Source: a virus (lineage: Duplodnaviria; Heunggongvirae; Uroviricota; Caudoviricetes). From it: a stretch of DNA of 22,730 nt. This document shows positions 171 to 21,563 of the stretch, piece by piece (position 1 is the first letter of the stretch; every line of letters starts with the position of its first letter). The stretch lies in IMG/VR virus record IMGVR_UViG_2565956720_000001. One strand, 5' to 3'. A model generated the notes under the pieces. That model searched no databases. It was given only the letters and a program-made list of their open reading frames with translations, and was not told the origin of the DNA. A program made the position numbers and the translations under genes.

Positions 171-214
171 CGGGCGGCGGCACATGGATGTGCCTTTAAA
201 TAATTCTGTACAGA

Positions 215-243
215 TTGCAGACCGGGGGTGAATAGCGTACTAT
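215..243 (+). promoter_or_regulatory. Candidate sigma70 promoter for the small membrane-peptide operon (TTGCAG -17 bp- TACTAT)
   Basis: -35-like TTGCAG at 215-220 and -10-like TACTAT at 238-243 with 17-bp spacing, about 40 bp upstream of the ATG at 284. Pattern match only. Confidence 0.3.
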
Positions 244-257
244 TACCTTAAAGGTAA
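243..257. promoter_or_regulatory. Palindrome TTACC-N5-GGTAA (copy 1), candidate operator overlapping the -10/+1 of the small operon
   Basis: TTACC (243-247), ttaaa, GGTAA (253-257); the same arms recur at 18387-18401 and 21549-21563. Confidence 0.4.
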
Positions 258-283
258 ACCATGTGTTTACATGAGGGGGAAAC

Positions 284-472
284 ATGGAAATCAACATCAT
301 TACATTGCTGAAGGCCATTATTGGCGGAGCGGGCTTAGGCTTTGCCCTACCAGGCGGATTATCTTTCCTGCTTCCTGCTTTTACTGTTACAGCTGGGATA
401 GCCTATGCATTTGCTGTAGCTGGTGCTGTTGCACTCCCTGCTATCTATGCCGCAAAGAAGTTAGCCAACTAA
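284..472 (+). CDS. 62-aa hydrophobic Gly/Ala-rich small membrane peptide (glycine-zipper-like); possible toxin or bacteriocin-like peptide
   Basis: ATG at 284 preceded by GAGGGGG (274-279). Product MEINIITLLKAIIGGAGLGFALPGGLSFLLPAFTVTAGIAYAFAVAGAVALPAIYAAKKLAN has GxxxG/GxxxA motifs and a basic C-terminus. TAA at 470-472 lies 1 nt before the next ATG. Confidence 0.55.
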   Translation: MEINIITLLKAIIGGAGLGFALPGGLSFLLPAFTVTAGIAYAFAVAGAVALPAIYAAKKLAN

Positions 473-473
473 A

Positions 474-806
474 ATGCCTGATTTATCTTGGCTTGCGCCC
501 AGAGATGCACAGCAATTGACAAGGTTTTATTTCATACTGTGCATTGCTTATCTTGCTGTTCATCTGATATGGGATGCCGTTTGCAAAGATACGCCTCCTT
601 TTTCTTTGGATAAGTTGCAATACAAGATGAATGAGGTTTATTCATCATCTACTTTTGCAACCAGCGCATTCTTCATTGTTATTCTGTTCGATATGAAGAA
701 TCCACTGAGAACTTCAGATGCTTTCATATTCCCATTAATTATTGCTGCTCTAACTGGCTTTATGATCTCATTATCAGCAATAGTGCCAAAGAAAGTAAAT
801 AACTGA
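474..806 (+). CDS. 110-aa predicted 3-TM membrane protein, translationally coupled partner of the 62-aa peptide (candidate immunity/antitoxin)
   Basis: ATG at 474, one nt after the upstream stop; three hydrophobic segments (FYFILCIAYLAVHLIW, AFFIVILF, FIFPLIIAALTGFMISLSAIV); lower G+C than neighbours by eye; followed by a terminator. Confidence 0.55.
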   Translation: MPDLSWLAPRDAQQLTRFYFILCIAYLAVHLIWDAVCKDTPPFSLDKLQYKMNEVYSSSTFATSAFFIVILFDMKNPLRTSDAFIFPLIIAALTGFMISLSAIVPKKVNN

Positions 807-810
807 ATAA

Positions 811-832
811 GCCCGCTCTGCGGGCTTTTTTG
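811..832 (+). terminator. Rho-independent terminator of the small two-gene operon
   Basis: GCCCGC-TCT-GCGGGC hairpin (811-825) followed by TTTTTTG, 5 nt after the stop at 804-806. Confidence 0.7.
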
Positions 833-870
833 TGCCTGCAGATTCCCGCCCGGGTGGCGGTGGCATTCGT

Positions 871-895
871 TAAAAACAAGGCCGCGAAAGCGGCC
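871..895 (-). terminator. Rho-independent terminator downstream of the antirepressor gene (minus strand)
   Basis: GGCCGC-GAAA-GCGGCC hairpin (880-895); on the minus strand it is followed by TTGTTTTTA (reverse complement of 871-879). Confidence 0.55.
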
Positions 896-896
896 T

Positions 897-908
897 GTGA
901 CATGTCAC
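897..908. repeat. 12-bp perfect palindrome GTGACATGTCAC, copy 1
   Basis: Exact 12-mer, self-complementary; identical copies at 19377-19388 and 21642-21653. Here it abuts the antirepressor terminator hairpin. Confidence 0.8.
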
Positions 909-946
909 GATAGTTCCTTTTTGCACATCCCTGTGCCTCCGTTCTG

Positions 947-1891: not shown

Positions 1892-1967
1892 GTCGTTAAT
1901 TCCTATACGTAGTTTTACGATACTGAAGCCCTGACGGTCTGGCCACCGTTGGGCTTCGCTGTTTTAT
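1892..1967 (+). ncRNA. sar: Candidate Sar-like antisense RNA complementary to the ant translation-initiation region (about 75 nt)
   Basis: Promoter at 1857-1885; hairpin GAAGCCC…GGGCTTC (1925-1957, inner stem ACGGT/ACCGT) followed by GCTGTTTTAT on the plus strand only. Same layout as the P22 sar RNA between arc and ant. Inferred, not experimentally supported. Confidence 0.35.
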
Positions 1968-2131
1968 GCCACGCTATTCTTCTCACCAGTGAGTCCATAC
2001 ACTTTCCTCAGCTGATAGATAATCTCTGTATTGAACTTTCGGCATTCTTTTTCGCCATTTCTTTCAATAGCTAACTTCACATCGTCCGGAAAACGAACTC
2101 GTCGTTGACACATCTCTTTTGCTTTTTGCAT
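1964..2131 (-). CDS. arc: Arc-like ribbon-helix-helix repressor (55 aa)
   Basis: Start re-placed at ATG 2131 (AAGGAG 7 nt upstream); the track's longer start has no ribosome-binding site. Product MQKAKEMCQRRVRFPDDVKLAIERNGEKECRKFNTEIIYQLRKVYGLTGEKNSVA follows the Arc pattern (R-x-P-x-x-V…NG…N-x-E-I-Y-Q). Directly upstream of ant on the same strand. Confidence 0.65.
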   Translation of the reverse strand: MQKAKEMCQRRVRFPDDVKLAIERNGEKECRKFNTEIIYQLRKVYGLTGEKNSVA

Positions 2132-2146
2132 TTCATATCTCCTTAG

Positions 2147-2214
2147 CCCCACCGTGGGGCAAAACAATTGTCACACCGTGCGTCATTGATGTCAAGCACA
2201 CGGTGAGGCATACT
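2147..2214. promoter_or_regulatory. Divergent, overlapping promoter/operator region between the arc-like and mnt-like genes
   Basis: Minus strand: TTGACA (reverse complement of 2191-2196), 17 bp, GACAAT, reading toward arc. Plus strand: TTGATG (2186-2191), 17 bp, CATACT (2209-2214), reading toward mnt. Palindrome GCCCCAC-C-GTGGGGC at 2147-2161; half-site CACCGTG at 2151-2157 and 2173-2179, inverted as CACGGTG at 2199-2205. Confidence 0.4.
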
Positions 2215-2251
2215 TCAATCATTGCAAGTAACTCAATATTTGGTGAAGAAC

Positions 2252-2683
2252 ATGAGCAGAGAAGATCCACAACTAAGGATCAGACTTCCCGTTGAAGTAA
2301 AAGAAAAAATAGAAATTTCTGCAAAAGCCAATAAGCGATCAATGAACGCTGAAATAGTACAACGTCTTGACACCAGCTTTCTGAAAGATATTCATGAAGA
2401 TGACGTAATTTCTGCTTATGAAGCAAAAATTATTGCAAACAATGCACGGCATGAAATATCAAATATTATTTTCAAAAGAACCTTTAATGAAATTAATAAG
2501 AAAATAACACTTGGACATACAAGTTTTTATATAAACCTTAATGACCTTGAACTGGAATCACTTGCAGATAATGATTACCAGATCATCTTTGAAAAAACAT
2601 TTAATAAGCTCAATGAACTAGGTTACATCATCTGTGAAAACTCATGGGATGCAGATGGTTTTGGAATTGAAATACCTGAATAG
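2252..2683 (+). CDS. mnt: Mnt-like ribbon-helix-helix repressor with an about 95-aa C-terminal extension of unknown function (143 aa)
   Basis: ATG at 2252 with GGTGA 5-6 nt upstream (the track start at 2222 is TTG). N-terminus MSREDPQLRIRLPVEVKEKIEISAKANKRSMNAEIVQRL aligns with remembered P22 Mnt (MARDDPHFNFRMPMEVREKLKFRAEANGRSMNSELLQIV). Roughly one-third G+C by eye. Confidence 0.8.
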   Translation: MSREDPQLRIRLPVEVKEKIEISAKANKRSMNAEIVQRLDTSFLKDIHEDDVISAYEAKIIANNARHEISNIIFKRTFNEINKKITLGHTSFYINLNDLELESLADNDYQIIFEKTFNKLNELGYIICENSWDADGFGIEIPE

Positions 2684-2720: not shown

Positions 2721-2773
2721 TACAATTGAAAAACGCCACATTACTGATGTATGTTACAACAAGGAGCGATATT

Positions 2774-3337
2774 TTGAAAACCATATCTATATTAAAGGTT
2801 GCATTAGGCGTCGCTATTATTTTGACTCTCTCAATATTGTTTTATTTTTACCACAAAAAAACAGCTATTGCTCTTGATGGTCACGCGGCAAACTCATTTT
2901 TCTCAGAGTACATAGTGCCGCTATCAGGAAGCGGTATAACAAATAAATATACTGACTATGACATCAAATATGGAATTGATGATGGGGAGACTATTGTATT
3001 ACATGTAATCATTAAAAACCTAATGACAGTAAATAAAAATACAGACTTCAACGATAAAAATACAATACATCACAACAACAGCAAAACATTAATTTCTTAT
3101 AGTAGCAACATCTATACGGATAAATACCTAAAATACATCTCAGAAGATACAATAAAAGCAACCAGCGAAAAGTTAAAAAACATATATTGTGCATCCGGCA
3201 GTTTTCACAAATTATCGCCGCAAGAGCGTTTATTCTACGAAGCAAGAAAACAACGTAAGTCAATAATATTACATTATTATGCTGATTCAGGGGAGTCACT
3301 CATATTTAATATTGGGGTTTCCCCTGAATCATGCTAA
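2774..3337 (+). CDS. AT-rich signal-anchored/secreted protein of unknown function in the sieA-equivalent position (candidate superinfection-exclusion protein)
   Basis: ORF to TAA at 3335-3337. Best-supported start is TTG 2774, with AAGGAG (2761-2766) 7 nt upstream; alternatives are ATG 2747 (no ribosome-binding site) and the track's TTG 2726. N-terminus KTISILKVALGVAIILTLSILFYFYHKK is a signal anchor. Asn/Lys/Tyr-rich, low G+C. Confidence 0.6.
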   Translation: MKTISILKVALGVAIILTLSILFYFYHKKTAIALDGHAANSFFSEYIVPLSGSGITNKYTDYDIKYGIDDGETIVLHVIIKNLMTVNKNTDFNDKNTIHHNNSKTLISYSSNIYTDKYLKYISEDTIKATSEKLKNIYCASGSFHKLSPQERLFYEARKQRKSIILHYYADSGESLIFNIGVSPESC

Positions 3338-18386: not shown

Positions 18387-18401
18387 TTACCTTTCAGGTA
18401 A
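18387..18401. promoter_or_regulatory. Palindrome TTACC-N5-GGTAA (copy 2), about 20 bp after a TTGACA hexamer
   Basis: TTACC (18387-18391), tttca, GGTAA (18397-18401); TTGACA at 18365-18370. The direct repeat AAATTATTACC also occurs at 18319-18329. Confidence 0.4.
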
Positions 18402-18725: not shown

Positions 18726-18802
18726 GTGGCATTAGCTCAGCTGGACAGAGCAACCGCCTTCTAAGCGGTTGGTCGCAGGTTCGAATCCTGCATGCCACGC
18801 CA
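18726..18802 (+). tRNA. tRNA-Arg (anticodon UCU, reads AGA), with encoded CCA
   Basis: Manually folded cloverleaf: acceptor GTGGCAT/ATGCCAC, D-stem GCTC/GAGC, anticodon stem ACCGC/GCGGT with loop CTTCTAA (anticodon TCT), variable loop TGGTC, T-arm GCAGG-TTCGAAT-CCTGC, discriminator G plus CCA. Confidence 0.9.
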
Positions 18803-20938: not shown

Positions 20939-21531
20939 TGATTACCATCCTGACGTTCTTTGAGTCGCTTCCTGGCTGCCGCTATGCGATCAGCAATTGT
21001 CACATTCACATTAACATCCAGGCGTTCTTTGAATGCGTTGACGTCGACGTGCTTACCAATCAGTTCGAGGTTCTTCACCTTGTCAGGCCATTTAATTTTT
21101 TTGAGGATTGTCTCTATCGAATCCTCGTTCATGTTCATGATGGTCGATGACAGATCAAAGCCACTAAGCGTAGTGCGCCAGATTTTCGGCCACTCGCGGA
21201 TTGGCTTAAGGCTCCCATCGTCGTTGAGGATATCAATCACGTCCATCTGGTCGATCTCCACCAGGCGCATGAGAACGTAATCGGCACTGACGCGCATTCG
21301 TTTGTTGCGCTCCTCCATCAACTCGGCAATCCGTTTTTGAATGCGTTCATCGCGCATCATGACACTGGCTTTAACTGCCGCTGTATTTGGGGAGAATCCT
21401 GCGTTAATCGCTGCCTGAGTCTGGTTTTCAGGCGTTTTGATGTATGACTGGCAATAAGCCTCCTGCATTGCGGTTAGTGGCTTAAATTGCGTTGATTTGC
21501 GTTTATAGGTTTTAGGTTCAGCAGGCATCAT
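20935..21531 (-). CDS. Terminase small subunit (about 198 aa)
   Basis: Start placed at ATG 21531 (tandem ATG ATG preceded by AGGGTGG). The track's longer ORF begins with TTG at 21609 and would include a terminator hairpin. Basic, helical N-terminus; immediately precedes and overlaps the large subunit gene. Confidence 0.75.
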   Translation of the reverse strand: MMPAEPKTYKRKSTQFKPLTAMQEAYCQSYIKTPENQTQAAINAGFSPNTAAVKASVMMRDERIQKRIAELMEERNKRMRVSADYVLMRLVEIDQMDVIDILNDDGSLKPIREWPKIWRTTLSGFDLSSTIMNMNEDSIETILKKIKWPDKVKNLELIGKHVDVNAFKERLDVNVNVTIADRIAAARKRLKERQDGNQ

Positions 21532-21548
21532 AACCACCCTGGTAATTG

Positions 21549-21563
21549 TTACCGTTGTGGTAA
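21549..21563. promoter_or_regulatory. Palindrome TTACC-N5-GGTAA (copy 3), with an extra GGTAA half-site at 21541-21545, just upstream of the small terminase start
   Basis: GGTAA (21541-21545), ttg, TTACC (21549-21553), gttgt, GGTAA (21559-21563); 18 bp from the terS ATG. Could be an operator or a terminase-recognition element. Confidence 0.4.

Follow-up and report, generated by a model that had tools for sequence, protein, structure and literature searches.

The window analysed here, a stretch of 22,730 nucleotides (nt) of viral DNA (IMG/VR record IMGVR_UViG_2565956720_000001), is part of an Escherichia coli prophage of the epsilon15 / phiV10 / TL-2011b type (Uetakevirus-like; the related phiv142-3 is classified as Uetakevirus) and carries at positions 171-946 a compact cassette of two genes, g1 and g2. 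By comparative sequence analysis, these are genuine, co-transcribed and translationally coupled genes of small integral membrane proteins that form an obligate pair. They belong to a conserved family without described relatives, and our database and literature searches indicate that the protein pair itself is undescribed. The cassette occupies a swappable slot between two convergent antirepressor genes, under a promoter abutted by a palindromic operator that recurs across the prophage, and is possibly a conflict module acting in the inner membrane. Its elements are the following.

284-472, + strand: g1, a 62-amino-acid (aa) Gly/Ala-rich hydrophobic protein (PHROG 13406)
474-806, + strand: g2, a 110-aa protein with three transmembrane (TM) helices, coupled to g1 (PHROG 36716)
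273-279, + strand: Shine-Dalgarno site GAGGGGG of g1, read from the sequence; strong, with AGGAGG-type sites at the same place in relatives
215-220 and 238-243, + strand: predicted promoter read from the sequence, with -35 TTGCAG, a 17-nt spacer and -10 TACTAT
243-257, both strands: operator palindrome TTACCTTAAAGGTAA, abutting the -10 and spanning the likely transcription start
254-270, + strand: hairpin GTAAAC-N5-GTTTAC in the 5' untranslated region, overlapping the right half of the operator
809-827, + strand: stem-loop of the intrinsic terminator of the cassette, with a T-run to 834; 8-bp stem with 6 GC pairs

An earlier note on this DNA, made from the sequence alone, had proposed two open reading frames (ORFs) at these positions with three TM helices in the second, and both are borne out, as is the gap of 1 nt between the g1 stop (TAA) and the ATG of g2. 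Codon alignments of 17 loci gave pairwise ratios of non-synonymous to synonymous substitution rates (dN/dS) between 0.05 and 0.27 in g1 and between 0.05 and 0.16 in g2. Synonymous sites are saturated or nearly so, and the ratios rule out that the two are chance ORFs. The genes are adjacent in every locus that we read (E. coli, Klebsiella, Citrobacter, Kosakonia, Serratia, eight Yersinia species, Sodalis, Winslowiella, and 18 IMG/VR contigs), and no orphan g2 was seen among these loci. The IMG/VR set comprises 19 contigs, of which 18 include the upstream side and one, L053, begins within g2 (L numbers denote individual loci throughout). The junction TAA-N-ATG/TTG/GTG is kept in nearly all loci, and the 1-nt spacer is conserved across genera. 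Translation of g2 hinges on re-initiation, in many cases at a TTG or GTG start, whereas g1 has a strong Shine-Dalgarno site, so that more g1 than g2 is probably produced.

Both families are small and mainly found in Enterobacterales. An exhaustive profile search widened the g2 family to 83 clusters at 50% identity, with lengths of 76-156 aa except for one protein of 3,161 aa and with no catalytic-looking invariant residues across the broad family. We looked up three distant g2 relatives (20-30% identity) and found a small hydrophobic gene just upstream in each; the upstream partners in L017 and L019/L020 keep the Gly-rich helix (KAAIGGAGLALAF, AEGIVAGVGFSL). At E ≤ 1, g1 matched no Pfam or NCBIfam family, g2 matched none except PgaD at chance level, and neither matched a family of PADLOC-DB v2. 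The 21 g2 relatives searched likewise gave no match in these libraries. In PHROGs, the two proteins fall in families of function unknown. Sequence-profile searches of the PDB returned nothing meaningful for the pair, and literature searches with its RefSeq accessions and peptide strings found no mention of it. A tblastn search of g2 against 50,697 deposited phage genomes gave no match, and thus no isolated phage among them carries the pair; the single metagenome scan returned one 1-kb contig.

The sequences of the proteins point to an all-membrane system. The g1 protein has a grand average of hydropathy (GRAVY) of 1.33, contains 15 Ala and 8 Gly, is hydrophobic over its entire length, and lacks a soluble segment; even its first 15 residues have a hydrophobicity on par with a TM helix. 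It was described previously as carrying several GxxxG/GxxxA motifs: four GxxxA/AxxxG and several AxxxA are indeed there, but only one strict GxxxG. The conserved motif of g1 is K-x-x-h-[GA]-G-A-G-x-G-F-A...G-G-x-S...P-x-x-T-x-T, with K10 and K58-K59 at the flanks of the protein. Gly, Ala and Ser together make up about half of both putative helices when counted by eye, and g1 is probably a two-helix hairpin. AlphaFold2 returned a single 57-residue helix with a predicted local distance difference test (pLDDT) score of 80, which is uninformative for a probable hairpin. For g2, AlphaFold2 (pLDDT 72) places helices at residues 12-36, 45-72, and 82-103; hydropathy also gives three. Its conserved motifs are H-x-x-W-D and D-x-x-N-P-L-R-x-S-D. 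Both proteins are all-membrane, with neither a DNA-binding region in g1 nor a toxin fold or family in g2.

The genomic context of the cassette is delimited by these elements.

1-170, + strand: 3' end of the left antirepressor gene (ORF 12-170), truncated by the start of the window
179-194, + strand: weak terminator-like GC hairpin GGCACATGGATGTGCC, followed by TTTAAATAATT, 3' of the left antirepressor stop; read from the sequence
835-873, + strand: 3' remnant (39 nt) of a 53-aa signal-peptide gene, recognised by comparison with relatives
879-896, - strand: intrinsic terminator of ant
947-1891, - strand: ant, a P22-type antirepressor gene (Pfam P22_AR_N, E = 3.7e-44), convergent with the cassette

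A 171-nt inverted repeat, 96% complementary, has its arms at 1-171 and 946-1116, 774 nt apart, and the cassette region (172-945) is exactly its spacer. Each arm is the 3' end of an antirepressor gene; the two genes converge and have a C-terminal domain in common, and ORF 12-170 ends in the same ...DIQTHAEYINDKAGFF as ant. In L001 and L002, where the left gene is full-length, it carries the annotation BRO-N and gives a match to Pfam Bro-N. In complete relatives, the inverted repeat extends over 270-292 nt. Since the left gene is the 3' end of a + strand antirepressor gene, the left flank lies on the strand of the cassette, and the previous statement that both flanks are on the opposite strand holds for ant only.

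The slot exchanges its content. Its flanks are present in ~520 of 5,426 complete E. coli genomes, and the g1-g2 cargo in only 19 of them; one further strain, AHB29, carries a divergent allele of this cargo. Alignment shows that the left flank (antirepressor stop, short hairpin, -35, -10, and operator) is common to prophages with other cargos, the hairpin at 179-194 being kept among them, and that the right flank, from the terminator onward, is common to them as well. Homology between slot relatives stops just past the operator and restarts at the terminator. The control elements therefore belong to the slot, and the cargo is only ~259-808. The earlier note had credited the cassette with its own promoter, operator, and terminator: the elements exist, and the palindrome is even a perfect 7-1-7 (TTACCTT-A-AAGGTAA), but in E. 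coli relatives they are those of the slot, and the operator is phage-wide. That an accessory membrane module is carried here as a moron is supported by the sparse presence of this cargo in the slot and by the other cargos found at the same spot. One of these encodes a 59-aa basic protein and a YafO-like protein (Pfam YafO_toxin, 26.3 bits for a cut-off of 25). A third type encodes a 55-aa basic and a 146-aa acidic protein without family match (L054 1599-2227; L055; L056 2770-3246).

Some further observations concern the slot. In phiv142-3 the 55-aa gene is intact and its downstream partner is reduced to a 52-aa ORF. The IMG/VR prophage contig L042 (1529-4473) has the g1-g2 and the YafO-like cargos as neighbours around an inverted BRO-N gene. 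The 53-aa signal-peptide gene (MKKAFAALFVLLSLVASTQAFAGRCQ...) is intact 3' of the cargo in L001, TL-2011b, and Klebsiella prophages, and 192 bp of it are absent from the window and from E. coli AHB29.

The cassette promoter has a -35 with only 3 of the 6 consensus bases, which places it under the threshold of the consensus scan, where it was not listed. It is supported by conservation, both in the E. coli slot relatives and in other phage loci, which have TTGCAA-17-TAATAT at the same position. The hairpin at 254-270 is predicted to be weak (-5 to -8.5 kcal/mol) and recurs before g1 in L038, L043, L045, and L051. The palindrome TTACC-N5-GGTAA that abuts the -10 is more informative. The window contains three exact copies (243-257, 18387-18401, 21549-21563) and one with a single mismatch (21531-21545), for 0.29 expected. 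The latter two copies in the region of the small-terminase gene (terS), at 21531-21545 and 21549-21563, are in tandem directly before its start, and a -10 TACTAT is fused to the first, as at g1. There are 14 copies in TL-2011b and 15 in phiv142-3, for 0.5-0.8 expected. Both phages have two copies on each side of the gene of a 194-aa helix-turn-helix repressor, in a layout like that of left and right operators (OL / OR), and the remaining copies precede terS, the BRO-N gene, int, the tailspike gene, and the cargo slot. Across more than 30 copies, no base of the 5-nt half-sites changes and there is no covariation, while the central 5 nt vary freely. This pattern is that of a site for a dimeric protein and rules out that the palindrome serves as an RNA hairpin.

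The repressors of TL-2011b and phiv142-3 are 98% identical. The latter has the same sequence as ORF21 of phage ZX5, the overexpression of which lowers endolysin and holin transcripts by more than 99.9% (PMC9782041). Because the operator abuts the -10 at g1 as it does at the leftward-promoter-like (PL-like) and terS promoters, the cassette promoter would be controlled by this repressor, with expression kept low in a stable lysogen and turned on by infection or induction.

The pair and its operator are also found outside the E. coli slot. An exact operator lies ~35-50 nt before the g1 start in 16 of the 18 IMG/VR contigs that include the upstream side; of the remaining two, L040 has a copy with one mismatch at that position and L046 has none there. 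In most displayed loci, the operator is fused to a better promoter, e.g., TTGCAA-17-TAATAT. Several contigs are of lambdoid type: in L047 the pair lies between the Q antiterminator gene and the lysozyme gene, and in L043 it lies ~1.4 kb downstream of the lysozyme gene. The presence of the operator with g1-g2 in such contigs led us to drop the idea that it is purely slot-borne, and implies that promoter and operator travel with the cargo outside the Uetakevirus frame. In Enterobacterales, the pair mostly occurs at accessory slots of prophages or at classic moron positions, and its promoter there bears the phage operator. The pair is very common in prophages of Klebsiella pneumoniae, where one g1 cluster is indexed in 2,675 blocks of the collection.

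Some copies are chromosomal. The pair occupies one syntenic site in eight Yersinia species and Sodalis, with a CorA-family gene on one side and an SBP_bac_5 gene on the other. Among the Yersinia species, the region is ~80% identical in DNA sequence, and the pair has diverged as much as the housekeeping genes around it. In Serratia fonticola, it adjoins guaA, with an integrase remnant in some strains and nothing phage-like left in others; guaA is the attachment site of Uetakevirus (PMC9782041). In two S. fonticola assemblies (L003, L005, ~6250), a 13-bp deletion frameshifts g2 in its first TM helix and leaves g1 intact. The phage operator was not found in the chromosomal copies read for it (four Yersinia species, Serratia, and Winslowiella). 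Finally, at 1554-3618 of L017, a distant g1-like/g2-like pair precedes the co-oriented gene of a TIR_2 + FGE-sulfatase protein, the TIR domain of which matches PADLOC TIR families; this is a single instance.

If the operator acts as its position suggests, the main repressor of the prophage would bind it and hold the pair down in a stable lysogen. Infection or induction would switch the pair on, and in cells that lack the cognate repressor its expression would be constitutive. The two proteins would insert in the inner membrane of the cell in which they are produced and act there as a single complex, and action in cis is suggested by the uniform hydrophobicity of g1 and its lack of a soluble segment. 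We consider it quite possible, if short of probable, that g1-g2 is a cis-acting conflict module, i.e., either an exclusion-type complex changing the inner membrane against incoming phage DNA or a membrane-embedded toxin-antidote pair akin to the soluble two-gene cargos of this slot. Three points lead us to it: the company that the pair keeps in the slot, its survival beside guaA after prophage decay, and the distant pair adjoining a TIR-domain protein. The toxin/immunity and exclusion readings that were among the first proposals for this cassette are in this sense possible. If the pair is of the toxin-antidote kind, then gene order and the analogy with the other slot cargos suggest that g2 is the harmful partner, with which the frameshifts of g2 beside an intact g1 in S. 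fonticola are consistent. An extended version of this hypothesis, which we regard as unlikely, makes the pair a new class of all-membrane conflict system: g1 would be a Gly/Ala-zipper hairpin forming a pore- or ring-like oligomer, gated or neutralised by the three-TM g2, with no soluble sensor or effector domain. Such a system would move between Uetakevirus slots and lambdoid moron sites with its repressor-gated promoter, and the Yersinia and Sodalis chromosomes would hold domesticated copies of it.

Several observations weigh against a conflict module, or against parts of it. We infer the binding of the repressor to the palindrome from sequence, and the g1 promoter has a single site. In five lambdoid-type contigs, the palindrome before g1 is the only exact copy within 10 kb. 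The position of the operator predicts repression, unlike in classic exclusion systems, which are expressed in the lysogen. The same two S. fonticola frameshifts count against a g1 toxin that needs g2. Last, the long syntenic retention and the purifying selection in Yersinia are unusual for defence genes, which turn over fast, and this retention fits a physiological role equally well.

Such a role is the main rival. The pair would then be a host-type inner-membrane complex (a channel, a transporter accessory, or an envelope-stress factor), carried by phages as fitness cargo and without a direct part in conflicts. The vertically inherited locus of the eight Yersinia species and Sodalis speaks for it, together with the lack of a phage operator at the chromosomal copies read, the dN/dS values of 0.05-0.27, the breadth of the g2 family (83 clusters, nearly all of 76-156 aa), and a pairing that is kept at 20-30% identity in the absence of catalytic-looking invariant residues. 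We nevertheless hold it to be rather unlikely, given that most occurrences in Enterobacterales are in prophage slots or moron positions with the phage operator, that the cargo is interchangeable with a YafO-like pair, that it is sparse in E. coli (19 of 5,426 genomes), and that one distant pair adjoins a TIR-domain protein. The operator position, which predicts expression only on loss of the repressor, would also suit an accessory of the lytic phase, in which g1 is a pinholin- or antiholin-like protein with helices of the signal-anchor-release (SAR) type, g2 is its modulator, and the derepressed pair tunes membrane energisation or lysis. The Gly, Ala or Ser content of about half of the g1 helix residues and the nearby lysozyme genes of L047 and L043 agree with this. 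However, the host phage family has its own holins (Phage_holin_3_7, Phage_holin_8) in a separate lysis cassette, the search for holin families suggested by the earlier note yielded no match for g1 or g2 in Pfam or PHROGs, and g1 lacks the charged C-terminal tail that is typical of holins. The stable chromosomal copies in Yersinia further reduce the chances of a role in lysis, which we judge quite improbable.

The earlier note had also raised the possibility that g1 is secreted as a bacteriocin akin to class II microcins, with cleavage after Gly14-Gly15 and immunity conferred by g2. In the window, residues 14-15 of g1 are indeed G-G and positions -4 and -7 are hydrophobic, and a small peptide gene followed by the gene of a multi-TM protein is a common bacteriocin/immunity layout. 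Immunity proteins of 51-216 aa that have TM helices are known, and class II microcins require an N-terminal signal of ~15-19 aa that ends in GG or GA, an ATP-binding cassette (ABC) exporter with a C39 peptidase (PCAT), and a membrane fusion protein (MFP) (PMC9746304). Yet position 14 is Ala (A-G) in at least five orthologues, namely those of Citrobacter (L013), L014, L027, L034, and Sodalis, and the distant partner in L017 lacks the leader motif, having I-V at the equivalent positions. No Peptidase_C39 or ABC transporter is present among the Pfam-called genes within ~5-6 kb of the pair, where contigs reach that far. At E ≤ 1, profile searches of Pfam and NCBIfam linked neither g1 nor g2 to a bacteriocin, microcin, or immunity family. 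Both the supposed leader and the supposed core of g1 are as hydrophobic as TM helices, and the strong purifying selection and multi-species synteny are unlike those of strain-variable bacteriocin loci. As the Gly-Gly is not conserved and no exporter gene is nearby, the secreted bacteriocin is unsupported; sequence comparisons have already largely refuted it, and we find it hardly credible.

Comparison with known systems helps to place the pair. In P22, sieA adjoins the immI (mnt-arc-ant) region, and our cassette similarly adjoins a P22-type arc-sar-ant module. Like g1-g2, the exclusion proteins SieA of P22 (a protein described in PMC10883804), Imm of T4, and gp15 of HK97 are small integral inner-membrane proteins encoded at accessory phage positions. 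They are single proteins, whereas g1-g2 is an obligate pair, and they have no sequence or profile similarity to it. SieA is expressed from the prophage, in contrast to the g1-g2 promoter with its operator in repressing position, and g1-g2, unlike exclusion of the SieA type, is also a stable chromosomal locus without phage. The closest analogy in layout is within the slot itself: gp45 and the YafO-like gp44 of TL-2011b, a type II toxin-antitoxin cargo, share its promoter, operator, and terminator frame and likewise have the small gene first, with the larger one behind it, overlapping or coupled. Decay follows the same pattern in phiv142-3 and S. fonticola, where the downstream partner is damaged and the upstream one intact. 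The difference is that g1 and g2 are both membrane proteins, with no known toxin family and no DNA-binding antitoxin. Type I membrane toxins (of the hok, ldr, and tisB type) have fewer than 60 aa, a single TM helix, and control by antisense RNA, whereas g1 has 62 aa, ~55 of them in a hydrophobic stretch, and a protein as partner, and no Rfam family is found in 171-946.

Other likenesses are partial. Class II microcin pairs such as MccV/Cvi resemble g1-g2 in that the gene of a small Gly/Ala-rich peptide stands beside that of a small multi-TM protein, but g1-g2 lacks a conserved GG, a PCAT or MFP exporter nearby, and a family match, and it is conserved and syntenic across species. The pinholin S21-68 is a class II holin of ~60-70 aa with two Gly/Ala/Ser-rich helices and small-xxx-small packing, and g1 is similar in size, in richness of Gly, Ala, and Ser, and in small-xxx-small motifs. 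It differs in being outside the lysis cassette (the pair adjoins lysis genes only in some lambdoid-type contigs), in having a conserved partner, g2, and in lacking both a holin family match and the charged tail. The immunity proteins of pore-forming colicins of type E1 (three TM helices) are like g2 in size and layout, which is a resemblance only, since neither g2 nor its 21 relatives has a Pfam match. Finally, g1-g2 is like other morons in being a promoter-gene-terminator unit with a sigma-70 promoter and an intrinsic terminator, variably present between conserved phage genes. It departs from them in that, in the E. coli Uetakevirus-like relatives, the control elements stay and the coding cargo swaps, and in that the promoter bears the phage's own immunity operator.

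Of the new anatomy found here, the most concrete piece is this slot of exchangeable cargo, putatively wired to the repressor and set between convergent antirepressor genes. As a fixed promoter-operator-terminator frame that exchanges two-gene cargos, it is a place to mine for accessory and defence cargos in Uetakevirus-like prophages, and a testable case of cargo wired into the immunity switch of a phage. If the pair is an exclusion or toxin-antidote module, it adds an all-membrane two-protein type without described relatives. Should it instead have a housekeeping-type role in the membrane, the finding would be an ordinary one, i.e., an uncharacterised family of small proteins that phages sometimes carry.

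The rest of the P22-type immI module of the window lies beyond ant and consists of the sar antisense RNA (1893-1960, + strand; Rfam score of 45.2 bits for a gathering score of 43) and of genes at 1964-2167 (- strand) and 2222-2683 (+ strand). The RNA lies between the Arc-like gene and ant, and an Arc-family (Mnt-like) gene is divergent from these two. The Mnt-like gene is adjoined by a 203-aa ORF (2726-3337, + strand) with a hydrophobic helix at the N-terminus and without a match to any family; at the corresponding position, related prophages have a hypothetical gene of 187 aa. Further along, ARAGORN and Rfam both identify a tRNA-Arg with anticodon TCT at 18726-18802 (+ strand), and a tRNA-Arg(tct) is annotated correspondingly in phiv142-3.

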